Shown here piece by piece: positions 31,600 to 42,841 of a stretch of 64,000 nt of DNA; position 1 is the first letter of the stretch; each line of letters opens with the position of its first letter. A model generated the notes under the pieces. The model did no database searches. It had not been told where the DNA came from and was given only the letters and a program-made list of their open reading frames with translations. Both the position numbers and the translations under genes were made by a program. The stretch lies in contig JANPGH010000123.1 in the NCBI GenBank assembly GCA_031423795.1, positions 14,206 to 78,205 on the forward strand, read 5' to 3'. The DNA is from Elusimicrobiota bacterium. Its GTDB lineage: Bacteria > Elusimicrobiota > Elusimicrobia > UBA1565 > UBA9628.

Positions 31600-31677
31600 G
31601 GGGTCATGGTGTAGCTGGCCTAACACGCTGCCCTGTCAAGGCAGAGATCGCGGGTTCGAATCCCGTTGACCCCGCCA
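31600..31677 (+). tRNA. tRNA-Asp (anticodon GTC), CCA encoded
   Basis: GGGGTCATGGTGTAGCTGGCCTAACACGCTGCCCTGTCAAGGCAGAGATCGCGGGTTCGAATCCCGTTGACCCCGCCA. Anticodon loop is CTGTCAA. Confidence 0.9.
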
Positions 31678-33381
31678 GTTTAGCCTCAAATTAACCACCG
31701 CTGTTCCCTTGACAGGCTGCGGATGGGTTGAAGTATCGGTCGCATTTGCCTCCCGCCGTCTTAATGTCTCATGGGGGCCAAATGCGACCGCTTTTTTTCC
31801 TCCAAGGGCTCGCTGGAAATCGGAGATGGCGATTTCGTGCGTCTTCACGTCGATCCCATCCTTGCGGACCATCACTTCCCGAATCAGCAGCCCGATAATC
31901 TGGACTTGAAGCGATAGGGGAATCCTGTTGAAGAATCGCGCGAAGCGCTGCAACGCTCCCTGCACGACGTCAACGTCGTAGACCACGCGCTTCCTGAAGG
32001 CCAGCTGCGCCTCCAATTGGACCGAGTGGGCCTCGAGCGTTCTCTTCGTCTCTTCCAATCGGCCGACTTCCTCGGCGGCATTACGCGACGCCCCGCCCTG
32101 CTTGGCCAGATTTAACAGTCCCTGGATTTCCCGCTGAACGCCCTGGAGGCGGTCATCAACCTCACGCTTCTCCTTTTCGAGCGGCCGGATCGAGGCCTTA
32201 GAAAGAACATCGGCCTTCTGCGTCACCCTCTCCAAGAACGCCCGGTCCCAGCCGACCGCCGCCAATTTCTCGACCAGGTATTCCTCGACTTTGTCCGCGT
32301 TCACGCTCCCAAACGAGCACCGCGCCGAGATGCCGTTCCGTTGGGCCAGACACTTGTAATATCGGTACGTCTTGCCCTTCTTGATCCGAGCGTAACCGGC
32401 CACCACGCCGCCGCACACGCCGCACCGGATCAGGCCTTTGAGGAGAAAGCCATGCCTGTTCGCGGCGTAGTGAATCTCCCCGCCCCGGTGGTTGTGGCCG
32501 GCGAGCAATTTCTGGACGCGCTCGAAGACGTCGGGTGCCACGATAGCCTGATGCTGGCCGGGGAACTCCTTGCGGGTCCGCTCGTTGGTGATAAGCCCGA
32601 TGTAGAGCTTGCGCCGTAGCGTTCGCCCCACGGCGTCCATGTCCCAGGGCTTGCCACCATAAAGTTTGCCGATCAAAGTCTTGTAGGTCTTGCGGCGGTA
32701 GCCCAGGCGGTTGAGCTCCTCGGCCACGCGGATCGAGGACTCATGTTCGAGGTAGAGGGTGAAGATGCGCCGAACGAGATCGGCCTCGCTCTCGTTGACC
32801 ACCAGCAGCTTGTCCCTGATGTCGTAGCCAAGCGGCGGCAGCCCCGCGCACCATAGCCCTTTGCCGGCGCGGGCGAGATGAAAATCCTTGGACCTCTCCA
32901 CGTCCATCTCCCGGTCGTACTGGGCGAACTGGACCATGATCGCCGTCATAAGCCGGCCCTGCGGGCTCTTCGTGTCGATCGACTCCGTGGCCGAGATGAA
33001 GGCGACGTTGCGTTTCTCGAACAACTCCAGCAGATAGTGGAAATCCTTGCTGTTGCGAGTAAGCCTATCCAGCTTGTAGACGATGACGCCCTGGACCTTG
33101 CCCTCCTCGATGGCCTTGAGAAGCCGCTTGATGGCGGGGCGCTTGAGATTCTTTCCCGACTCGGCCGGATCATCGAAAGCCTCGGGGTACTCCTGCCACC
33201 CCTTCTCCCGCTGGATCGCTATGTAGCTGCGGGCGCAGGTCTTCTGGTTATCAAGCGAGGTGACGGCACCGTTGAGATTTTCGTCGTTGCTTTTCCTCGT
33301 GTAGATCGCGATCTGGACAGGGCGCGCTCCGACGGCCGCCGCCTCGCCGCCCATCACTCCCACCCCCTCATTGTTCGCCAT
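31636..33381 (-). CDS. large serine recombinase/integrase
   Basis: Resolvase catalytic N-terminus (VQIAIYTRKSNDE...YKLDRLTRN), recombinase domain, zinc ribbon (CGVCGG...YYKC) and C-terminal coiled coil. The last 14 codons (..WRGQRDSNPRSLP) are the reverse complement of tRNA-Asp. Confidence 0.85.
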   Translation of the reverse strand: MANNEGVGVMGGEAAAVGARPVQIAIYTRKSNDENLNGAVTSLDNQKTCARSYIAIQREKGWQEYPEAFDDPAESGKNLKRPAIKRLLKAIEEGKVQGVIVYKLDRLTRNSKDFHYLLELFEKRNVAFISATESIDTKSPQGRLMTAIMVQFAQYDREMDVERSKDFHLARAGKGLWCAGLPPLGYDIRDKLLVVNESEADLVRRIFTLYLEHESSIRVAEELNRLGYRRKTYKTLIGKLYGGKPWDMDAVGRTLRRKLYIGLITNERTRKEFPGQHQAIVAPDVFERVQKLLAGHNHRGGEIHYAANRHGFLLKGLIRCGVCGGVVAGYARIKKGKTYRYYKCLAQRNGISARCSFGSVNADKVEEYLVEKLAAVGWDRAFLERVTQKADVLSKASIRPLEKEKREVDDRLQGVQREIQGLLNLAKQGGASRNAAEEVGRLEETKRTLEAHSVQLEAQLAFRKRVVYDVDVVQGALQRFARFFNRIPLSLQVQIIGLLIREVMVRKDGIDVKTHEIAISDFQRALGGKKAVAFGPHETLRRREANATDTSTHPQPVKGTAVVNLRLNWRGQRDSNPRSLP

Positions 33382-33399
33382 AGACCGCGCCTCCCGCCA

Positions 33400-33576
33400 T
33401 CATGAATTACCTTCGTTCCCGCTTGGAATCAAGGCCTTTCTTCCCGGTTCTCCGACGAAAGATTCAGGCCCCAACTCTCCCGATTCGGCCAAGGCGACGA
33501 GCCCCTCAGCAAATAGATCGGCCAAAGCGTCCAGCCGATCCGCAGGCGTCGTCTGCCTCGGCGGTTCAAAATGCAT
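33400..33576 (-). CDS. small acidic hypothetical protein (58 aa)
   Basis: MHFEPPRQTTPADRLDALADLFAEGLVALAESGELGPE... Its ATG overlaps the upstream stop (TGATG). It lies 18 nt upstream of the recombinase start, which has a GGGAGG Shine-Dalgarno sequence. Confidence 0.35.
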   Translation of the reverse strand: MHFEPPRQTTPADRLDALADLFAEGLVALAESGELGPESFVGEPGRKALIPSGNEGNS

Positions 33577-33689
33577 CAGTCGTCCCATCCCAGCCGCCGC
33601 CCGCATGCTTCGCACAGGACCGAGGCCAAGGCGTCGGCCCGCTCCTCGGGGATCATCTGATCATCGGGATACCAACGCTGCGGCTTCAT
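33576..33689 (-). CDS. very small hypothetical protein (37 aa)
   Basis: MKPQRWYPDDQMIPEERADALASVLCEACGRRLGWDD. ATGA overlap with the upstream gene and a GGAGGG Shine-Dalgarno sequence. Below the track length cut-off. Confidence 0.3.
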   Translation of the reverse strand: MKPQRWYPDDQMIPEERADALASVLCEACGRRLGWDD

Positions 33690-34132
33690 GACCCACCCTC
33701 CTTCCTGCTGAGAAGGATGGAAATCACCTGGCCCGGATAGTGGAAGCTGGGCCAGGCGGCCACGTCGGCCTTAAGCCCGTGCCGCTCGCAGAACGCGACC
33801 AGCTTGCGCATCGTCTCCCACTCGAGACCGTAAGGCTGCGTGACGTACATGGCCGGCTTGCCGTTTTGAAGCCACAGCGTGTCATGATCTCCCGAGGGAG
33901 GGACGCAATCTTTCAAGTTGCATTGTCTGCCCCATAGCCGCTGCACACACAGCCTGCCATCCGACTGCTTGAATCCCTTGCCCGCGAACGCTTGGTAGTG
34001 GTTCTCGGCCACGGCCTCGGCATAAACCGAGCTCACCGCATCCATCCCTTGCGCCTCGAGCAGTTCCCGCAGCGCCCTCAAAGCCCGCAGGTATTGCTCC
34101 GTCCTTTTCTCGCCACTCGCAAACTGTCTCAT
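33686..34132 (-). CDS. hypothetical protein (148 aa)
   Basis: The start was moved to ATG 34132, preceded by AGGAGGAGGAG, just after the terL stop at 34146. No recognisable family. Confidence 0.5.
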   Translation of the reverse strand: MRQFASGEKRTEQYLRALRALRELLEAQGMDAVSSVYAEAVAENHYQAFAGKGFKQSDGRLCVQRLWGRQCNLKDCVPPSGDHDTLWLQNGKPAMYVTQPYGLEWETMRKLVAFCERHGLKADVAAWPSFHYPGQVISILLSRKEGGS

Positions 34133-34145
34133 AACGCTCCTCCTC

Positions 34146-35558
34146 CTAGATCCACCCCAGGTCATCACTAAACGCAATCCGCGGCTCGGTCCTTTGGACG
34201 TTCATCGCCCGAAGCGCCAAGACCAACGCGTCGAGCAAATCGTCGTCGCCGTTGGGAAAGTCCGTCATCTCTCCTTCAAGCTGAGAAACCCACTTGGCGA
34301 ACTCGGGCCGCGGAAGCCGCAACGTCCCATTCTCGACTAAGGGAGCCACGGCGCTGATACGCGCCTCCTTGGGATCGGTCACGGGAACCATCTTAAGCGG
34401 CATGCGCCGAGCCTCTGGATCAACGCGAAGAAGCTGGCCAAAAACGCCTTGATAACCCACCGACTCGGCGACGATGAGGACGGGGTTGAATACCCGCCAG
34501 ATGCGCTTGGCATGGGCGATCTGATCGACGACTCCAATTTGGCCGCGGAAAGCGTCGATGACGAAGGCAGTGCCCGCCTTGTCAAACCCAGCAACGACAT
34601 AAGCGAACTTCGAGGCGTTTTTCTTTTCGCTGATCGCCAAGTCGATTCCCACATACACTCGAAGGCCCTCGGGTATCTTGTCGAATCGGCCGCTTTCGAT
34701 CCATTCGACCCGAAACGTCGAGTCTTCCTGGCCAGTGATGTCATTTAGGAATTGGGTTCGGTAGGCCGAGCTGCCCATGTTGGCCCTGAGGCGATCAAGC
34801 GTCTCGGGCGGGAATTTCTCTGGGAAAAGAATCCTGCGGGTCCCATCGGCTTCCGTCCACTCGCTTCTTTGCTCGATCACTTTCCAGTTCTTAAAACCGG
34901 GATCGGACGCGATTATGCCGGCGAGATCGTCCTTATGCCACCGCGTCATGCAGATCACGATTTTTCCGTTGGGCTCCAAGATCGGCAGGACCGTCTTCTG
35001 AAACCAGGACAGGACTTTCTTGCGTTGAAAAGGCGAGCCGGAGTTTTTCTCGCCTTGAGGATCGTCGATAATGACCAAATCCGAGTGTTGGCTGACGATG
35101 GTGCCGCCCATGCCCGCCACGCTGATGCTGGGCTCTTTCAATATGCGATCGCGCGGGATCGTTATTTTCTCGCTGGTCCAGGTTTCGCTTAAAGTGCCCC
35201 AGTGGCCGTAGGTCTCCTTAAAGCGATCGGTGGATATATGGGCCTTGATTGCCCCTAGAAAATCGCGGGAATTCCCGAGGATCTCGTTGAGCAGGAGCAC
35301 CCTGAGATTTTTGTTCTGGGTCAGGCTCCATAAGGCAAAGGCGACGCTGATGCAACTCGTCTTCATATGGCCTCTGGGACTCAAAAGCAAGACGAATTGA
35401 TGGCGCAGGATTTCCTGGTACCAGCGGAGGTGGAACTCGGTTAAATCCCGATACCCACAAACATCGCGCGCGAAAGTGAAAAGATCGAGCAAGCGGGCCT
35501 GCTCTTGAGCGTCCATGGGAAGCAGCTTGCGGGGATCAGAGTCCATAGTCATAGGCAT
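34146..35558 (-). CDS. terL: phage terminase large subunit
   Basis: ATPase motifs LLLSPRGHMKTS (Walker A-like) and DLVIIDD (Walker B). C-terminal RNaseH-like nuclease motifs VYVGIDLA, AESVGYQ, DDLLDALVLAL. Confidence 0.75.
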   Translation of the reverse strand: MPMTMDSDPRKLLPMDAQEQARLLDLFTFARDVCGYRDLTEFHLRWYQEILRHQFVLLLSPRGHMKTSCISVAFALWSLTQNKNLRVLLLNEILGNSRDFLGAIKAHISTDRFKETYGHWGTLSETWTSEKITIPRDRILKEPSISVAGMGGTIVSQHSDLVIIDDPQGEKNSGSPFQRKKVLSWFQKTVLPILEPNGKIVICMTRWHKDDLAGIIASDPGFKNWKVIEQRSEWTEADGTRRILFPEKFPPETLDRLRANMGSSAYRTQFLNDITGQEDSTFRVEWIESGRFDKIPEGLRVYVGIDLAISEKKNASKFAYVVAGFDKAGTAFVIDAFRGQIGVVDQIAHAKRIWRVFNPVLIVAESVGYQGVFGQLLRVDPEARRMPLKMVPVTDPKEARISAVAPLVENGTLRLPRPEFAKWVSQLEGEMTDFPNGDDDLLDALVLALRAMNVQRTEPRIAFSDDLGWI

Positions 35559-35711
35559 CGCTCCTGGCGCAAAAACTGGCGCAAATTAAATTTTTGGGAT
35601 ACTTGCCCCGATCGGCGACCAAAAATCCCGCTTTTTCCATCAATGGCCCAGGAGCCGATTCTCCGTCGAGAAACGACTGCACCTAATACCCCATTAGGTG
35701 CGGTCAATGGG

Positions 35712-36278
35712 CTAACGTGGCGCATGTTTTTCCTCGCTCGGCGGCGCGTCGTAGGCGCTTGGGCCCGCCTCTGCGGCCTTTTCTAGAGCGGCGCGATCGG
35801 CCTCGTCCAGGCTCTTAACGGGCTCTACCGTTACCTCAACGATTTTGGGAGTCTCGATGACTTCAGACAGCGATCTCTGAAAAATCATCAAGGTTTCCGA
35901 CGCTTTTTGTCTCTCGGGCAGCCGAGGCACAGTCCTGGCAGCCGGCATCAACGTCCTCAGCTTGACTACGGCCTCGATCATGGAAGCCACGTCCCGCGGC
36001 GTGGACTTGGGGGCCAGAGCGATTCCCTGGCGCATATAGCTCTCAAGGACCGCCCAGAACAGCCGCTCGCGTTGGCGGGCGGTGCCGACCTGGGCCGACG
36101 CCTCCACGTTCTGCTCTTTGGCCTCGGCCGGCAACCTTGCGCTTTCCGCGCAGCGCCGCACCGAAGAGCGGGACATTCCTTTCTCTTTGGCCAGCGCCGA
36201 GGGGCTCTCGCCCGCCGCCACCCGGGCTGCGAGTTCGGCTATGAGCTCATTTTGGTATTTGGGTTTTCTGCCTTTCAT
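35712..36278 (-). CDS. HTH protein in the terminase small subunit position
   Basis: N-terminus KPKYQNELIAELAARVAAGESPSALAKEKGMSRSSVRRCAE is helix-turn-helix-like. It lies immediately upstream of terL. The TerS call rests on position only. Confidence 0.4.
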   Translation of the reverse strand: MKGRKPKYQNELIAELAARVAAGESPSALAKEKGMSRSSVRRCAESARLPAEAKEQNVEASAQVGTARQRERLFWAVLESYMRQGIALAPKSTPRDVASMIEAVVKLRTLMPAARTVPRLPERQKASETLMIFQRSLSEVIETPKIVEVTVEPVKSLDEADRAALEKAAEAGPSAYDAPPSEEKHAPR

Positions 36279-36317
36279 GTTTTGTTGCCTCCTCTAGGTT
36301 TATGAGCCAGCATCCTC

Positions 36318-36584
36318 TCAAGGCAGAAGATCGGTCTTGTCTGCCTTGAACCAGATTTCTTGGCAGCCGCCGCAGACTAAAACCAGGCGGTAGAGATCAG
36401 TGACTCGGCGATAGATCATGTGTACGCGCCAATCCCGGCTTCCACAGTTGCAGACAACCTGGGCCGGGTTTTCATCATAGGGCCACCGCTCTGTTGACTT
36501 GGTCGGCTTCAAATCCGGCATAGGACCACTGCTAGATTCAACAATCACGAGTCTTTTCATGCCGAACACCATTTCGTCTTTCAT
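36318..36584 (-). CDS. small Cys-pair (zinc-ribbon-like) protein
   Basis: VVCNCGSRDW...LVCGGCQEIW. Overlaps the upstream gene by 4 nt. Confidence 0.45.
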   Translation of the reverse strand: MKDEMVFGMKRLVIVESSSGPMPDLKPTKSTERWPYDENPAQVVCNCGSRDWRVHMIYRRVTDLYRLVLVCGGCQEIWFKADKTDLLP

Positions 36585-36982
36585 GACTTACCTCCGTTTT
36601 TATTTATTTTTTTGCCTTCTGTAGGTCTTACGTCAAACCAGGGCATAAACGTAACTTTGTCCTGTTTTTTAGAAAGCACGACGCCCACGCGCTTGCTTCC
36701 CACCTGCCACAGCCGGCCGGCGCCAAGCGGCGTGGCGACAGTCTTGTTCACAAAAGGATAAAGGCGCGCTGGACCTTGGCCGAATTTCGCCTCGCATTCG
36801 CGGCTCTCAGCCGGCCACGGAATGCCCAGGTAAGCCAAGACCTCCGCTTTGCGGCTCTTGATCTCGGCCGGCAACTCGGCGGCCTGGGACGGAGCGCAGG
36901 CGTGGGCACACTTGTAGCGAAGCGCGCCATCGTGGATGGAGAGGCAATAGCCCAGCTCGCGGAGCGCCTCGACAACTCTCAT
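36581..36982 (-). CDS. hypothetical protein (133 aa)
   Basis: ATGA overlap with the primase gene stop. No recognisable family. Confidence 0.45.
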   Translation of the reverse strand: MRVVEALRELGYCLSIHDGALRYKCAHACAPSQAAELPAEIKSRKAEVLAYLGIPWPAESRECEAKFGQGPARLYPFVNKTVATPLGAGRLWQVGSKRVGVVLSKKQDKVTFMPWFDVRPTEGKKINKNGGKS

Positions 36983-39900
36983 AGCGAGCCCTCCATGAGA
37001 TCGAGCTCGGCTTGACCCTCGGCCGGTGAACCTGGTGAACCTGCGGGCATAGGTTCACTCTGAGGTTCACTTTGAAATTCCGATTTATTTTCCAGGTGAA
37101 AACCGTTAGTCAGTGAACCTGGTGAACCTGTTTGGCACTCACCGTTTCCTCCCGGTATATATATTTCTTTTTCATGAGGAAAAATCTCCTCGCCTCGTGC
37201 ATATGGGTTGGAAAAAGGTTCACTAGGTTCACCGTCATCGGATAGCATTGGATTTACAATCACTTTTTTAGGTGAACCTATCGGTGAACCTGGGGTGAAC
37301 CTCGCCGGAGGTTCACCTACGGGCGTCGCCTCGGCCTGACTGGGCATGGCTACAAGCCGCCATTTCTTGGCCCGCTGGCGCTCCCCGACCAAAACGATCC
37401 GCAAGCTCTCGAACTGGCGGTCGCGCAGCTTGACCAATTCCTGGCCCAACTTCGTCTTTTGAGCTTTTTCGGTACCCTTGCCGAGGTCGATAGGCTCGTC
37501 CAAAGCATTCGCCAGCTCAAAGAGCTCGGAAACGCCGACCTCTTGGTCGCCGAACTTCTCCCACCAAACTTTCACGAATCCGCGCCAGATGGCTCCCTCG
37601 AAATCCGAGTTCGAATAAAGATCGGCGAGGTTGCCCAAGAATCCCTTGATCCCAGCCACCTCGAGAATCCCGCCCATGATCCGACTCCAAGAATCGAACA
37701 TTCCAAGGGCCTGGCCTTTCCAAAGCGGGCGACCGGCCGCAAACCAGGCTCGAATCAAAGTCAGCGCCGACCAAAGAAGCTCCGCTCGGTGCTCCCTGAC
37801 CCAGCTGCGCAGATCCGGATGCCGGAATCCTTGCCTGAGCCATGGACAGTCCACCTTGGCGTCCAGGCGAATGCGGACGGTTCGACGGGATACCTCATGC
37901 GACAGCGAGGCATTATTTCCACTCGCAATCCAAACCGCTCGCACCGGAAGGCGGATAATCTTGGACTGGCCCAGGATTCGGTCCTCCCAAAAAGAGCAGG
38001 TCAGCGCCGATGAAAACGCCGCCGAGTCCAGACGTCGTCTTAGGTTGTCGATGACGATGATGCTGGGCAGCCCCATCAATTTCGAAGAAATCCTCTTTCG
38101 CATCTCGTCCTCATCGCGGCCCTCGGTCATCAAGGCCGGCCAGCGGCCCAAGGCGATGTAAGCCAGGACCTCCGTTAAAAGGCCCTTGCCGGTCCCCGGC
38201 GAGGGAGCCTCGATGAGGTGCAGCGGGGTGGGGCCGTCGATCAATTCTCGTATCAACGGCAGAAGGACAATGGCTATCGCATGAGCTAGCTCGGAATCGC
38301 TGACGAACGGGAAATCCCAAAGCAGATCCCTGATCAAGCCGGTCGCCTTTTCGATCTCAGATGATGTCGGCCGATCGGAAACGGGCGGCAGGGAAAATCC
38401 AGGCAGCGGCGCGTAATATGTGCGGCCAAGTTCGTGATAGCCGGGCGTTGATTGCAGGCTGCCGTTGTTGAAAAAGACGGGGAATTCGATGATTCGATTT
38501 AAGATCGGTAGCGGAGGGTTAGGATCAGCCAGCATGTCGCGAACCATATCCATCGGCGGAGGGACAGGAATGATGCTCTCCTCCTCGCCCTTCTTTTTGA
38601 TGATGAAGAAATGCGCGGCACGAGCCAACGCATGCCGCGTCCGGTCGAGGTTGAGATCTCGGGATATCTCGATACTCTCGTCGTCCCTCTCGATGCGCAT
38701 CAAGAGGCCCCCGCAGCGGAAGTAACGCTCCGGCCGGTTGGCCTTGTTTAGAGCCCTCCAAGCCTTCGCCGCGGTCCGTTTAAGCTCGCCATCCTCGGCA
38801 GAGATCCAAGGGAGATCGTCGCCCTGTTCTGCGAACTCGGAATCATCTTGAGAACCGCCGGGGATGGATTGATGTCGGGGCTCCTTGGCCTTTTCCTTTT
38901 CCAGCCGCCTCTGCTCGGAGAGAACCTGGTCTAGGAGCTTGGGCTTAAGGCCGGTGATTTTCTCGATTTCTTCAAGAGCCCGCTTGCGCTCAAGGGCGGG
39001 GCAACGCACGAGGCGGCCGATCGCCTCCGTCAGAAGCGCGTTGCGCTCCTTTTCATCCGCGGCCGCGGGCCACTTTTCCTTAATGGTCGCCAGCTCCGCG
39101 TCCACATCGACCGGCGGCTGCTCCGGCGCTTTCTTGACGCCATCGCGCTCACGCCACAATCCCAACGACTTCAAGACGCCTTTCTTGTGCCGGTCCCAGC
39201 CGATCACGTCCTTAAAATCTTTCCAGTGAGCGTTGCTGTCGTGCTTGCAGGAGGCCGAGTAGCGGCCATCGGCCTCGACCATGACGCAGCACTCAAAAGT
39301 GTGGCCGTCGTCATCTTTGTGGTGAGGGCATTTCTCAAAAATGAAAAGCGTCCGCCCGCCTTTCTCTTCTTTTCGAAAGCCAAAACCGGATAGAGTCAGA
39401 ACACCTTCCAAAACCGCGAGACCCTCCTCGCGCGTCCAGGAGCGTTTGCCGTCGGAAGTTGGCGCGGCAGGTTGAACAGAAGAAGGCTTTGGCTTCTGCC
39501 GCTCCTTGAGTTCTTGACGATACGCATCCAGTACGTCCTTGAGTTTGGCGAAGAGGTCGATGTCTTCCGGGGCCGCATTGGGATCGATGCTCGCCCAGCG
39601 ATGCGGCCGCTTGCCCACCAGGTTGGCGCCTTTTACGTTCAACGTGCCATAAAGCCGCAGGATGCGCGCGGGATTAAAGATGGTCGTATCCACCTTGGCT
39701 TGGCCCGTGTTGAAATGTTCCGCAAGCCAGTGAAGCAGGAGCTTCGACTCTTCCGCGGCCCGGGCCAGGTCCTCGCCTTTGTAAGGAATGGTCGGAATGA
39801 GCAGGTGATAGCCGTTGCCCGAGTCCGCCCAGATCGCCTCGATCCCGTTTTCCAAGAACCACTCTCTGACCTTCTGGGCGACCAAAAAAGCGCCTTGTTT

Positions 39901-40425
39901 TTCCTCGTCGCTGGCTGAAATTTGACTTTTGCGCTCGGGATCGACATCTACGCCGAACATGTCATATGCGACGATGTCCGCATCCGAGGTGGTCTGCTCG
40001 GCATACTTGATGCAGTTCGCCACACGGCCAAGAAGATCGGGGTCGACAGGTCGTAGACTGAAATAGATATTGGCTTCGCCGATCCGCGGGTAATCCCCGT
40101 AGGGAAGTTTTGATCTAGGCGAGATAGATAGCGGCTGGATCGCTTTGATGAGCTCACGCCAATGATCCTTGTCAAAATAACCACACCACACAGCCTTCTT
40201 TCCGCCGGACCCACCAAGGATGCGTACTTCAGTGACGCCGCCGTGCGCGTCGTGCCGGGCCGTGATCCACTGCACAAATGGAATAAGGCTCTCCCGGCAT
40301 GCGGGAGACTCCAGGTACAGCTTGGTTTCACCGACTGGTTCTTTCATCATTTTTCCTGTCCCAACAAAAAGGCGCTGCCCCCCGGCCTTTAGGCCGGAGT
40401 GGCAGCGCCTCGGTTTTCCCGACAA
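36979..40425 (-). CDS. primase-polymerase (AEP) fused to a P-loop helicase-like domain; replication initiator
   Basis: AEP motifs FGVDVD, SGNGYHLLI and NPARILRLYGTLNVKG. Cys/His cluster CPHHKDDDGHTFEC...CKH. P-loop-like APSPGTGKG and Walker-B-like SIIVIDN. The C-terminal tail is encoded by the iteron array. Confidence 0.7.
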   Translation of the reverse strand: MSGKPRRCHSGLKAGGQRLFVGTGKMMKEPVGETKLYLESPACRESLIPFVQWITARHDAHGGVTEVRILGGSGGKKAVWCGYFDKDHWRELIKAIQPLSISPRSKLPYGDYPRIGEANIYFSLRPVDPDLLGRVANCIKYAEQTTSDADIVAYDMFGVDVDPERKSQISASDEEKQGAFLVAQKVREWFLENGIEAIWADSGNGYHLLIPTIPYKGEDLARAAEESKLLLHWLAEHFNTGQAKVDTTIFNPARILRLYGTLNVKGANLVGKRPHRWASIDPNAAPEDIDLFAKLKDVLDAYRQELKERQKPKPSSVQPAAPTSDGKRSWTREEGLAVLEGVLTLSGFGFRKEEKGGRTLFIFEKCPHHKDDDGHTFECCVMVEADGRYSASCKHDSNAHWKDFKDVIGWDRHKKGVLKSLGLWRERDGVKKAPEQPPVDVDAELATIKEKWPAAADEKERNALLTEAIGRLVRCPALERKRALEEIEKITGLKPKLLDQVLSEQRRLEKEKAKEPRHQSIPGGSQDDSEFAEQGDDLPWISAEDGELKRTAAKAWRALNKANRPERYFRCGGLLMRIERDDESIEISRDLNLDRTRHALARAAHFFIIKKKGEEESIIPVPPPMDMVRDMLADPNPPLPILNRIIEFPVFFNNGSLQSTPGYHELGRTYYAPLPGFSLPPVSDRPTSSEIEKATGLIRDLLWDFPFVSDSELAHAIAIVLLPLIRELIDGPTPLHLIEAPSPGTGKGLLTEVLAYIALGRWPALMTEGRDEDEMRKRISSKLMGLPSIIVIDNLRRRLDSAAFSSALTCSFWEDRILGQSKIIRLPVRAVWIASGNNASLSHEVSRRTVRIRLDAKVDCPWLRQGFRHPDLRSWVREHRAELLWSALTLIRAWFAAGRPLWKGQALGMFDSWSRIMGGILEVAGIKGFLGNLADLYSNSDFEGAIWRGFVKVWWEKFGDQEVGVSELFELANALDEPIDLGKGTEKAQKTKLGQELVKLRDRQFESLRIVLVGERQRAKKWRLVAMPSQAEATPVGEPPARFTPGSPIGSPKKVIVNPMLSDDGEPSEPFSNPYARGEEIFPHEKEIYIPGGNGECQTGSPGSLTNGFHLENKSEFQSEPQSEPMPAGSPGSPAEGQAELDLMEGSL
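37025..37317. repeat. iteron array (GGTGAACCT / AGGTTCACC) flanking an AT-rich tract: candidate replication origin
   Basis: Twelve copies of the core GTGAACCT/AGGTTCAC, starting at 37025, 37034, 37051, 37063, 37112, 37121, 37216, 37225, 37271, 37283, 37294 and 37309, plus a degenerate copy at 37095. Both orientations occur. An AT-rich stretch gtatatatatttctttttcatgaggaaaaatc at 37155..37186 lies between the two iteron clusters. Confidence 0.7.
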
Positions 40426-40435
40426 CGCTATTGCT

Positions 40436-40615
40436 TTACGAGTTTTTCAGTGTTTCCGCTTCGAAGTCGTGCATTTTCAGTGTCTCTTCGATCTTGACAT
40501 GGACAATTTTTCCGTTCTCCCAACAGAGGATGGTCTTGCCAAAAAAGCGCTTCGCGCGCGTACGCCGAATCCATTTCAGAAGCAGCTCATCGGTGATATG
40601 CGAGTTTCCATTCAT
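40436..40615 (-). CDS. small hypothetical protein (59 aa, YezD/DUF2292-like pattern)
   Basis: MNGNSHITDELLLKWIRRTRAKRFFGKTILCWENGKIVHVKIEETLK... The internal ATG was chosen so that the ORF does not overlap 40636..40929. Confidence 0.35.
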   Translation of the reverse strand: MNGNSHITDELLLKWIRRTRAKRFFGKTILCWENGKIVHVKIEETLKMHDFEAETLKNS

Positions 40616-40635
40616 GGCTATCTTCACGCTAATTC

Positions 40636-40929
40636 TTACGCGCAAGCCTCGGACCTGAAAACCTCGACCTTGAAAGAATCGCGCCCCATCGTCTTCCTCA
40701 GCGATTCCAAGAAAAGTCGGATTAGGTACTCCCCGCAACCCGGCTGCCCCTCGATGATCCAGCCAGGATTTCGGCCAGAGCGCATCATCCCGACTTCCTG
40801 AAGGCGCTTCCTCCCAAACAATGGCTCGACCGTGGCGCAGGCCTCGGCCAAGAGCCGCGAGGCGAGCTTGAGGTCCGCCGCGCTCTTAAATCGAATGCCG
40901 TAGAGCTCCGCCTCCGTCTTCATCGTCAT
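40636..40929 (-). CDS. hypothetical protein (97 aa)
   Basis: ATG is preceded by AAGGGGGA. No recognisable family. Confidence 0.4.
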   Translation of the reverse strand: MTMKTEAELYGIRFKSAADLKLASRLLAEACATVEPLFGRKRLQEVGMMRSGRNPGWIIEGQPGCGEYLIRLFLESLRKTMGRDSFKVEVFRSEACA

Positions 40930-40994
40930 GATTCCCCCTTGCCCGTCCTAACTTTCACACTCCGCTTCATTTCGCTACCCTAATCGGCAAAAAA

Positions 40995-41888
40995 TTATTC
41001 TAACTGATGCGCCAAATGAAGGGCTTGGTACCGCGTTGGCGTATTGAGCGGCAGCATTGCCCCCGTGTCCAGCTTCTCCTTTTGCCGGCCCCGGGCGATC
41101 AGCCCGCAGAATCGGCTGGTCATGAGCTGGGATAAATAGGCCTGCGCCGCGCTGAACGTGCAGGTCGTCAAGGGAACATTTCGATGAGCCGCCACGCATT
41201 CCTCCCAATGTATCCGTTGAATCACATGATCCAACTCGTCGCGGCACTTGATGGCGTAATCAGGTCCGACCTTGATCTTGCCCCCGGAACGAGCGTAACA
41301 AACGAGATCCAACGCTTTTAGGAATCCGGAAAAATACCCGAACTGGGTCGTGCGCAGCGCCTCTTCTATTTTCTCGTGAGCCCGCTGCTGAACTACTAAT
41401 CCCCAGGTGTAATCGGCGAGACTGATCATCAGGGTCAGATAATAGAGGTTCGCGGCCTCGTGTCCCAGGTCAGCGTCCGTCTTCTCCCGCTGCGGCGCCA
41501 GCTCGTGAAGCTCCTTAAGCATCTTGAGAAATAGATCGAAAAAGCCGTCCAGGTACTCGGCCAGCAGTTTGTGCACGGCCTTCTTGAATTCAGGCTCCGA
41601 GGCCCATTTTCTCTCCAAGGTATAGCTGCTCTCGATTCTTTCCGCGAGCAGCTTATGGCTGCGAAGAGTCCAGTTGCCGAGGACCAGCATGAGCACTTGC
41701 GCCATGAATTTCTTTTTGGGGACCGGGCGCTTCTCATCGCGCGGGATGCCCTTGCGCTCGGGCTCCGCGTAGTTCTGGCATTTCTTAAAGGTCCACTCCA
41801 CGAGATCGAATCGCAGCACGAACTCCTCGCGGCTGAGAAACGGTCGCGGAGGATTAAGGCGCGTCATCCGATCCATCACATCTACCAT
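40995..41888 (-). CDS. hypothetical all-helical protein (298 aa)
   Basis: The start was moved to ATG 41888 (MVDVMDRMTRL...), immediately downstream of its own promoter. The track ORF start at 41984 would overlap the XerD-like gene. Confidence 0.5.
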   Translation of the reverse strand: MVDVMDRMTRLNPPRPFLSREEFVLRFDLVEWTFKKCQNYAEPERKGIPRDEKRPVPKKKFMAQVLMLVLGNWTLRSHKLLAERIESSYTLERKWASEPEFKKAVHKLLAEYLDGFFDLFLKMLKELHELAPQREKTDADLGHEAANLYYLTLMISLADYTWGLVVQQRAHEKIEEALRTTQFGYFSGFLKALDLVCYARSGGKIKVGPDYAIKCRDELDHVIQRIHWEECVAAHRNVPLTTCTFSAAQAYLSQLMTSRFCGLIARGRQKEKLDTGAMLPLNTPTRYQALHLAHQLE

Positions 41889-41898
41889 GGTAGCAATA

Positions 41899-41926
41899 TT
41901 ATTACAGATGTTAATATAGTTGTCAA
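41899..41926 (-). promoter_or_regulatory. strong promoter in an AT-rich island (TTGACA-16-TAATAA / TGtAATAAT)
   Basis: The minus strand reads TTGACAACTATATTAACATCTGTAATAATATTGCTACCATG. The ATG lies 9-10 nt after the -10, giving a leader of 0-3 nt. Confidence 0.5.
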
Positions 41927-41956
41927 GGGCTTTTGCGAACCGTTTTTCTGCAAGGA

Positions 41957-42841
41957 TCAGAACCGCGGATGCGCCCGCTCGCAAGTCTCACGCATAAAGG
42001 CGGCGCTTACATGGGTGTATCTTTGAGTCGAGGTCACACTCCGATGCCCTAAAATTTCCTGCACGACCCTGAGGCTTGCTCCCCCTTCGAGGAGCCGTGT
42101 CGCCGCACTGTGGCGGATTTTGTGGGGATGCACGCCATCCTTGAGTCCCGCTCGGCGCGCAAGCTCCCGGAGCTGACACCAGAAGTCCGTCCTTGAAATC
42201 GGCCGGCCGCGATAGCTTAGAAACAGAATCTCCCGCTCTCCGGGAAAGTGTTTCTGCCTTGAGGACAGGTACTTTGTCAGAGCTTCTTGAGCACGCGGAC
42301 CCAGGGGCAAAACCCTCTCGCGCCCGCCTTTGCCATGCACGCGGACCCAGCCTTCCTCCATATTAAGCTGATCCAACTTTAGGTTGGCCATTTCGGAAAC
42401 CCTCATACCAGTCGTGTAGAGCATCTGAAGCGCAGCGCGAGTCCGCACGAGATGAAACTTGTCGCCCGTGGGCATCGCCAGAAGTTTTTCCATATCGACA
42501 CTGGTCAAGGGCTCGGGCAAGCGCTGCTTATACTTCGGCAAGCTCATGCCGGCAGTTGGGTCGCAAGCAGCCGCTCCTCGATCCCTGAGAAAACGATGAA
42601 ATTGGCGGACAGCGATTGCCGCGGAAAAAACGCTCGCGCTTCTTAACCCATCGTTCTTGCGCCGCTCGAGGTAAGCCAGGACGTCCTCACGGCCGGCTGA
42701 ACAAACCTCGAGTTGCCGCGCCGCCAGGAATTTGAGGTAGCTCCTGATCTGATAGCGATATGAAGACCAGGTGCGCGGAGACAGATTACGCTCCACATTA
42801 AGATAGCGAATGAATTCATCCAACAGGCTCCCATCGCTCAT
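41957..42841 (-). CDS. XerC/XerD-family tyrosine recombinase
   Basis: N-terminal SAM-like domain (FIRYLNVERNLSPRTWSSYRYQIRSYLKFL). Catalytic residues in context: TGMRVSE...HKIRHSAATRLLEGG...LGHRSVTSTQRYTHV. Confidence 0.8.
   Translation of the reverse strand: MSDGSLLDEFIRYLNVERNLSPRTWSSYRYQIRSYLKFLAARQLEVCSAGREDVLAYLERRKNDGLRSASVFSAAIAVRQFHRFLRDRGAAACDPTAGMSLPKYKQRLPEPLTSVDMEKLLAMPTGDKFHLVRTRAALQMLYTTGMRVSEMANLKLDQLNMEEGWVRVHGKGGRERVLPLGPRAQEALTKYLSSRQKHFPGEREILFLSYRGRPISRTDFWCQLRELARRAGLKDGVHPHKIRHSAATRLLEGGASLRVVQEILGHRSVTSTQRYTHVSAAFMRETCERAHPRF

Follow-up and report, generated by a model that had tools for sequence, protein, structure and literature searches.

A repeat array inside the 3' end of a D5-type helicase gene as the proposed replication origin of an integrated Elusimicrobiota element

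The Streptomyces plasmid pWTY27 (accession number NC_013667.2) requires a 300-bp iteron region in cis and needs both repA and repB for its replication, which is bidirectional; RepA specifically binds the inverted repeat arms in electrophoretic mobility shift assays and footprinting, and the 'loop' is left unprotected (Wang et al., PMC3583192). The Rep proteins of Staphylococcus aureus pathogenicity islands (SaPIs) are self-loading superfamily 3 (SF3) helicases, the C-terminal winged helix of which reads 6-12 repeats located next to rep and having an AT-rich centre (PMC9371898), and phage-inducible chromosomal islands (PICIs) have been described as 'always' having two sets of repeats that flank an AT-rich region (PMC6092414). 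The lambda ori, in which repeats are combined with an AT-rich region, is located inside gene O (PMC3349717). The P4 record (NC_001609) gives TGTTCACC as the type-1 repeat, and its crr is composed of ten copies in both orientations directly 3' of alpha. The present analysis deals with a repeat array in a 64,000-nt stretch of DNA from an Elusimicrobiota bacterium (assembly GCA_031423795.1, contig JANPGH010000123.1, positions 14,206 to 78,205; hereafter the window). This array was found at the 3' end of a gene for a D5-type SF3 helicase, and it is read as the replication origin of the ~11-kb element carrying it, recognised by the very helicase that encodes it, at a rough probability of 0.85. An earlier note on this DNA had proposed such a self-recognised iteron origin, and the proposal is supported by DNA-level conservation of the sites, an adjoining winged-helix-like domain, co-variation of protein and repeat, and homology to pWTY27.

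Repeat array and helicase gene in the window

The word GTGAACCT/AGGTTCAC had 12 exact copies in the window, all located at 37026-37316; GTGAACCT was split into seven copies on the plus strand and five on the minus strand, and dinucleotide-preserving shuffles averaged 1.1 copies and never exceeded 4. The earlier count of 12 copies in both orientations within 293 bp was thereby confirmed, while the degenerate thirteenth copy that had been added to it (GGTGAAAACC, 37096-37105) was kept in no relative and should not be counted. The array and its inner components were arranged as follows:

37025..37317, both strands: whole array, proposed origin, 12 x AGGTTCAC(C/T)
37272..37316: outer group near the winged-helix coding part, with plus-strand copies at 37272, 37284, and 37295 and an inverted copy at 37309
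37216..37232: core arm of two abutting copies 9 bp apart, GTGAACCT on the minus strand
37130..37215: central 86-bp spacer, holding the AT-rich tract 37155-37186 (proposed melting site)
37113..37129: core arm of two abutting copies, inverted relative to 37216-37232, GTGAACCT on the plus strand
37026..37070: outer group near the stop codon, with plus-strand copies at 37026 and 37035 and inverted copies at 37051 and 37063

The earlier note had described two clusters around an AT-rich tract: the tract was indeed flanked by repeats, but the copies are better described as two inverted core pairs plus two outer groups of four copies each. The arrangement fits the SaPI/PICI layout: 12 repeats (6-12 in that layout), an AT-rich centre, and at least two opposed repeats per side. 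The tract itself was AT-rich as claimed (78% A+T at 37155-37186) and formed an unusually unstable duplex, the 30-mer at 37156 being the second least stable in 30-44 kb (-30.1 kcal/mol vs a mean of -43.7, sd 3.5). An AT-rich patch at ~41895, upstream of a 329-aa open reading frame (ORF), was the sole duplex in 30-44 kb to match the instability of this tract.

A genome-wide count of the word, suggested in the earlier note, was made with GGTGAACCT in the 2.88-Mb assembly (159 contigs): 26 occurrences were present (eight in the array and 18 lone and scattered) vs 23 for the reversed-pattern control, and the word is thus rare rather than common. A second, crr-like repeat cluster, also suggested there as something to look for, was found neither in the window nor in the assembly (92% complete), and AGGTTCACC with one mismatch allowed made no further cluster anywhere else in the window. 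Rfam yielded no RNA family at E <= 1 across 36500-37800.

The helicase gene displayed the following components:

36979..40425, minus strand: primase-helicase ORF, 1148 aa from TTG 40425, stop codon at 36979-36981
39346..40347, minus strand: N-terminal domain, putative archaeo-eukaryotic primase (AEP)-type primase, with DVDPE and SGNGYHLL motifs recognised by eye only
37561..38772, minus strand: D5-type SF3 helicase domain, ~aa 552-955, with Walker A APSPGTGKG and Walker B IVIDNL
37336..37548, minus strand: winged-helix-like C-terminal domain, the probable repeat reader, ~aa 960-1030, with helix-helix-helix-beta-beta topology
37453-37455, minus strand: codon of T991, recognition helix (start of the third helix)
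37375-37377, minus strand: codon of Q1017, wing (hairpin)
36982..37014, minus strand: conserved C-terminal tip QAELDLMEGSL, following the repeat-encoded linker

The database gene call for this protein (P0002) started at ATG 40347 and gave 1122 aa. The array sat wholly inside the last ~350 nt of the ORF and was translated as peptides GSP, GEP, SEP, and RFT, so the repeats are part of the C-terminal tail of the 1148-aa protein, as had been noticed earlier. The stop codon overlapped the ATG of the next gene as ATGA, and the DNA at 36982-37014 additionally held the GGAGGG Shine-Dalgarno sequence of that gene.

PHROG families 10537, 29234, and 19930 ('DNA polymerase/primase') matched aa 524-1024; Pfam and NCBIfam gave no significant match to the protein, and phmmer gave none against PDB. 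An AlphaFold2 model of aa 540-1040 (61 homologues in the input) reached a predicted local distance difference test score (pLDDT) of 92, and its top Foldseek matches were African swine fever virus PrimPol, poxvirus D5/E5, and SaPI5 Pri-Rep (7OLA), with E values of 1e-8 to 1e-6. On this model, the C-terminal half is predicted to consist of an SF3 helicase of the D5/SaPI type and, after it, a winged-helix-like domain. The latter domain modelled alone had a pLDDT of 83, and its Foldseek matches were weak (E >= 0.1), the best being winged-helix proteins of Cdt1, MukE, MCM, ORC, and MarR/ArsR types. The PrimPol half of the previous label 'PrimPol-helicase' found no support from Pfam (E <= 10), PDB sequences, or hhalign against a Prim-Pol-bearing family member.

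Conservation of the array and its co-variation with the protein

The comparison was applied to six elements of the same gene order and 67-83% aa identity, namely the window, L009, L010, L011-13, L094, and L095. In each of these six elements, all 12 sites had the same orientation and the same distances from the stop codon (-338...-55), the outer-group positions 37272-37316 being kept in L009, L010, and L011. Pairwise divergence at third codon positions was 0.09 in the repeats, 0.39 in the tail outside the repeats, and 0.45 in the gene body; synonymous sites in the repeats were ~5-fold less diverged than elsewhere, which argues that selection acts on the DNA. The tail outside the repeats was near neutral (0.35/0.27/0.39 at codon positions 1/2/3), while the gene body showed 0.19/0.13/0.45 at the same positions. 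All indels in the nucleotide-level alignment were multiples of three (3, 6, 12, 18, 24, and 30). Five of the six elements shared the ORF end, overlapping the next start codon as ATGA or GTGA, and the ORF of L095 was six codons longer and ended in TGATG. The last 340 nt of the helicase gene of L010 (=L015) contained a mixture of two words, AGGCTCAC at six sites and AGGTTCAC at five, and its recognition helix had S-R-K-T vs A-Q-K-T; this mixed array may be a specificity switch caught mid-transition.

Database matches to the helicase numbered 1147 at E <= 1e-3, and the family scans covered 80 loci from genomes plus 80 from viral contigs, 152 of them analysable. With an array defined as at least eight copies of one 7-mer within the 840 nt where the winged-helix coding region ends, arrays were present in 124 of the 152 loci and in many phyla (8-18 copies, median 11), and the control, namely the most repeated 7-mer in any 840-nt span elsewhere in each locus, had a median of 6 copies. 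The family extended over Elusimicrobiota, Planctomycetota, Alphaproteobacteria, Acidobacteriota, Chloroflexota, and Bacillota, and it comprised hundreds of prophages, satellites, and islands. The lineage-specific words followed the pattern A-[CG]-N-[TC]-N-C-[AC]-C and included (i) AGGTTCAC, ACGTTCAC, ACATTCAC, ACGTTCCC, and ACCTCCCC and (ii) ACCCTCAC, AGGCTCAC, AGGTCCCC, AGGTACAC, and ACGTCCAC. The common layout was two to three repeats one way, a spacer (median 56 nt), two to three repeats the opposite way, and outer repeats beyond. Both the central spacer between the arms, conserved across phyla, and the '<<' core arm equivalent to 37216-37232 were found in 120 related arrays. The family spacer was composed of TTTTC.ACCC.TACGCAC, a (CG/CA)n alternating purine-pyrimidine run, GAGAGG, and CCGGAAA, and the left end of the window spacer was TTTTC..ACCC..T(A/G)CGCAC-like and thus family-conserved; the window's clade carried an AT-rich run in place of the GC-alternating one. 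The conserved spacer could be a melting or priming site.

The ORF read through the entire array in 111 of the 124 loci; among 107 distinct arrays, the gene frame was open in 88, and the other two frames were open in 9 and 0. In L019, L024, and L072, the gene stopped before most or all of the repeats, which were hence largely non-coding. Together with pWTY27, these loci argue for a DNA motif that is independent of translation. A peptide P-[DA]-W-L-[KR]-E-[VL] followed the repeat-encoded stretch and was seen at the last ~8 aa in L036, L047, L051, L105, and others, with QAELDLMEGSL instead in the window's clade; the third codon positions of the terminal peptide varied synonymously, indicating selection at the protein level. 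A large helicase family without a Pfam model would thus gain a proposed replication origin, along with an annotation rule: the gene's final ~350 nt are where the origin should be sought.

Additional modular variation was seen across the family. The module of helicase, winged-helix domain, and repeats was joined to at least three unrelated N-terminal primases (Prim-Pol/AEP, Toprim/DnaG-like with a zinc finger, and DUF3854), as read among P0008-P0121 with the P0009, P0024, and P0111 sequences, and some relatives had an extra domain after the repeat linker. Distant helicase homologues in giant Caulobacter phages (H10-H22: C1, C2, CcrBL9, CcrSC, and others) were annotated as 'PE-PGRS family protein', a label that looks like a mis-annotation.

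The repeat word changed together with the winged-helix-like domain. In pairs having helicase core identity >90%, the divergence of this domain was 0.03/0.19/0.26/0.33/0.50/0.66 at 0/1/2/3/4/5 repeat differences (Hamming distance), and the identity loss was confined to aa ~960-1039; two single positions accounted for most of the signal. Residues were then compared with bases in 135 homologues, using phylogenetically independent pairs on a tree built only from the helicase core: (i) A at repeat base 3 was associated with Ile at 991 in 23/23 loci and G with Thr in 103/103 loci, and 10 of 10 independent contrasts agreed (p=0.002); and (ii) C at repeat base 7 was associated with His at 1017 in 59/61 loci and A with Gln/Arg/Lys/Glu in 71/74 loci, with 12 contrasts agreeing, none opposite, and two without difference (p=0.0005). 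L026 and L041 differed by four domain residues, three of them in the wing, and the repeat changed from A to C. Replacement of Gln989 by Arg accompanied a T to C change at repeat base 4 in four of five contrasts (p=0.125), which is only suggestive. An association of Lys/Arg at 990 with repeat base 2 was lost on phylogenetic correction.

These pairs may amount to a residue-to-base recognition code that is readable from sequence alone, in which Thr/Ile at 991 would correspond to G/A at base 3 and His vs Gln/Arg at 1017 to C/A at base 7. If the code is true, T991I would favour AGATTCAC, and Q1017H would favour AGGTTCCC; it would further predict which elements are compatible or cross-replicating, and it might be used for designing orthogonal replicons.

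Host element, proposed mechanism, and alternative explanations

The array was carried by an integrated, capsid-less element of ~11 kb, located at about 31600-42841. Besides the primase-helicase gene, it contained the following:

41957-42841, minus strand: XerC/D-like tyrosine recombinase
36581..36982, minus strand: 133-aa protein of unknown function, its start overlapping the helicase stop codon, with synteny in L009-L013, L094, and L095
35712-36278, minus strand: HTH_7 protein, possible small terminase
34146-35558, minus strand: large terminase TerL
31636-33381, minus strand: large serine recombinase (integrase), its end overlapping tRNA-Asp

Further minus-strand genes encoded unknown proteins beside the primase-helicase, an 88-aa protein, and a 163-aa protein, and ordinary cellular genes were present on both flanks of the ~11-kb run. 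No capsid, portal, or tail genes were found in this run, so the element resembles an island of phage-satellite type or a remnant. Overlap of the 133-aa gene start with the helicase stop codon suggests translational coupling; no similarity was found between the 133-aa protein and the additional domain at the C terminus of Toprim-type relatives (e.g., P0009). One end of the element was marked at 31600-31677, where the serine recombinase ORF ended inside the opposite-strand tRNA-Asp, with tRNA-Val 90 nt off; the other end lay near the tyrosine recombinase (41957-42841), and the island thus had two unrelated recombinases. L010, L012, L013, and L009 were metagenome contigs of 9.8-11 kb, composed of nearly the whole element and little else.

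In the mechanism that we propose, the winged-helix-like domain at the C terminus (aa ~960-1030) would allow the D5-type SF3 helicase to bind the repeats AGGTTCAC(C) of 8-9 bp. With two inverted repeat pairs flanking the 86-bp spacer and its unstable AT-rich centre (37155-37186), the helicase would assemble on both sides of the spacer, melt it, and load itself, presumably as a double hexamer, after which the N-terminal domain would prime synthesis; this mode is likened to that of self-loading SaPI Rep, P4 alpha, and pWTY27 RepA as described. The eight outer repeats would serve to increase occupancy locally. The origin DNA would meanwhile be translated as a ~100-aa, nearly unconstrained linker connecting the winged-helix domain to the short conserved C-terminal peptide, the reading frame of which continues straight into the next gene.

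Several points weigh against this reading. Binding, melting, and origin firing are what we infer for this element and its close relatives. The winged-helix assignment comes from topology and weak Foldseek matches (best E 0.1), the solved origin-binding domain of P4 alpha was absent among the Foldseek matches of the isolated domain, and the hhalign alignment with P4 alpha was limited to the Walker A-C region (probability 13%). The N-terminal primase is a putative assignment. Among the relatives, no circular contigs and no terminal overlaps were found. Since the winged-helix coding part adjoins the repeats, joint recombination could yield some of the co-variation without direct recognition, and it probably contributes; in spite of this adjacency, the one-to-one pairing of residues with bases speaks for direct reading.

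Three other explanations of the array were weighed. The first, which we regard as improbable, accepts binding by the winged-helix domain but makes the array an auxiliary cis site, for example a P4 crr-like enhancer, a copy-control/handcuffing site, or an operator gating read-through into packaging genes, with the true start of replication elsewhere. The P4 cluster lying directly 3' of alpha is crr rather than ori, and the array of the window is located inside an operon, upstream of translationally coupled genes, where its bound form could block transcription or translation. However, neither the window nor the assembly offered a second cluster as the 'real' origin, the array had its own AT-rich and unstable centre between inverted repeats, and the homologous pWTY27 array at the same position suffices in cis together with repAB.

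The second explanation takes the repeats for a cos/pac site of the HTH_7 protein and TerL, the genes of which lie 0.7-1.5 kb downstream of the array. Small-terminase sites are often short repeats upstream of terminase genes, as in lambda cosB. Against this, the array stayed with the helicase gene in the full alphaproteobacterial prophages L105 and L157, in which TerL was 5-6 kb away and RuvC, HNH, and ParB-methylase genes lay in between; the repeat word co-varied with the helicase C-terminal domain, and the homologous array of pWTY27 has no terminase at its locus. With the array tied to the helicase rather than to the terminase in full prophages, this explanation is rejected as very improbable.

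The least probable explanation, that the repeats are the by-product of a selected low-complexity GSP/GEP peptide tail without any DNA function, agrees with the translation of the tail, the frame being open in 88/107 arrays, the multiple-of-three indels, and the conserved peptide that follows, but it is excluded because the same word is used in both orientations and different frames to give unrelated peptides (GEP, GSP, and RFT), because synonymous sites are conserved in the repeats with the surrounding peptide near neutral, and because most or all repeats are non-coding in pWTY27, L019, L024, and L072, while the word in addition co-varies with the DNA-binding domain.

Under the origin reading, this stretch would be dual-coding DNA, constrained as a protein-binding array and kept open for translation, but nearly free to drift as a peptide. 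That the origin is in frame on purpose in >100 elements of many phyla, so that translation through it matters, is a doubtful proposal for which three ways are possible: (i) the origin DNA codes for a disordered ~100-aa tether presenting the conserved C-terminal peptide to a partner; (ii) the nascent winged-helix domain, which is encoded only tens of bases upstream and would therefore emerge near the DNA of its own binding sites, leaves the ribosome while still coupled to that DNA, giving cis-preferential initiation; and (iii) initiator occupancy of the origin gates the translationally coupled downstream (packaging) genes.

Comparison with described replicons

Among the closest described systems was pWTY27, the RepA of which is a distant homologue. 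A tblastn search with aa 540-1040 gave a match (33% identity, 72% query coverage, E 1e-48) to the gene at 621-2237, namely repA. The pWTY27 repeats GTTCCCAC/GTGGGAAC, located directly 3' of repA, are words of the same family, and the '<< spacer >>' layout was common to its locus (L177) and the window. The two systems differed in that (i) the pWTY27 primase is the product of a separate, upstream and co-transcribed gene repB (Prim-Pol), while the N-terminal domain of the window is fused in a single 1148-aa ORF; (ii) the pWTY27 array is non-coding and located after a terminator hairpin, while that of the window is translated as a protein tail; and (iii) pWTY27 is a conjugative plasmid of Actinomycetota, while the window holds an integrated satellite-like island of Elusimicrobiota.

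With SaPIs/PICIs, the element shared an SF3 helicase plus winged-helix-like C-terminal domain (here predicted), short repeats at the 3' end of rep, an AT-rich centre between oppositely directed sets of two or more repeats, SaPI5 Pri-Rep (7OLA) among its top structural matches, and the nature of a small integrated element of phage-satellite type. It displayed no sequence-level homology to them (no Pfam or PDB-sequence match), and SaPI repeats are of 5-6 nt outside the ORF, whereas those of the window are of 8-9 nt inside it.

Like P4 alpha, the window protein would combine primase, SF3 helicase, and C-terminal origin-binding domain in one polypeptide, its primase being putative and its binding domain predicted. 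The P4 octamer TGTTCACC was given correctly in the earlier note, as checked on NC_001609; it shares the seven bases GTTCACC with AGGTTCACC, which is a resemblance only. P4 differs in needing two sites 4.5 kb apart (ori and crr), where the window has one cluster, and in having non-coding repeats and a Toprim-type primase.

The analogy to lambda drawn in the earlier note, that of an origin inside an initiator gene, holds in principle: in both cases, repeats and an adjacent AT-rich region are found inside the initiator's own reading frame. The lambda ori stretch encodes an inter-domain segment that is tolerant of change. Lambda O, however, depends on P to recruit host DnaB and is itself no helicase, while the initiator of the window is an SF3 helicase and genes resembling O or P were not seen in the element; in addition, lambda ori is located mid-gene with four 19-bp repeats, while the window has twelve 8-9-bp repeats at the 3' end.

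Taken against these systems, an initiator that is a self-loading SF3 helicase and has a repeat origin next to it is of an already known kind (SaPI/PICI Rep-ori, P4, and pWTY27), and so is an origin placed inside a gene, lambda ori within O being the precedent for dual coding. What would be new here is that the proposed origin stays in frame throughout a large and unannotated family spanning many phyla and is traceable across >100 lineages, that it encodes a drifting ~100-aa linker to a conserved terminal peptide, and that its pairing of protein residues with repeat bases may be read as a recognition code.

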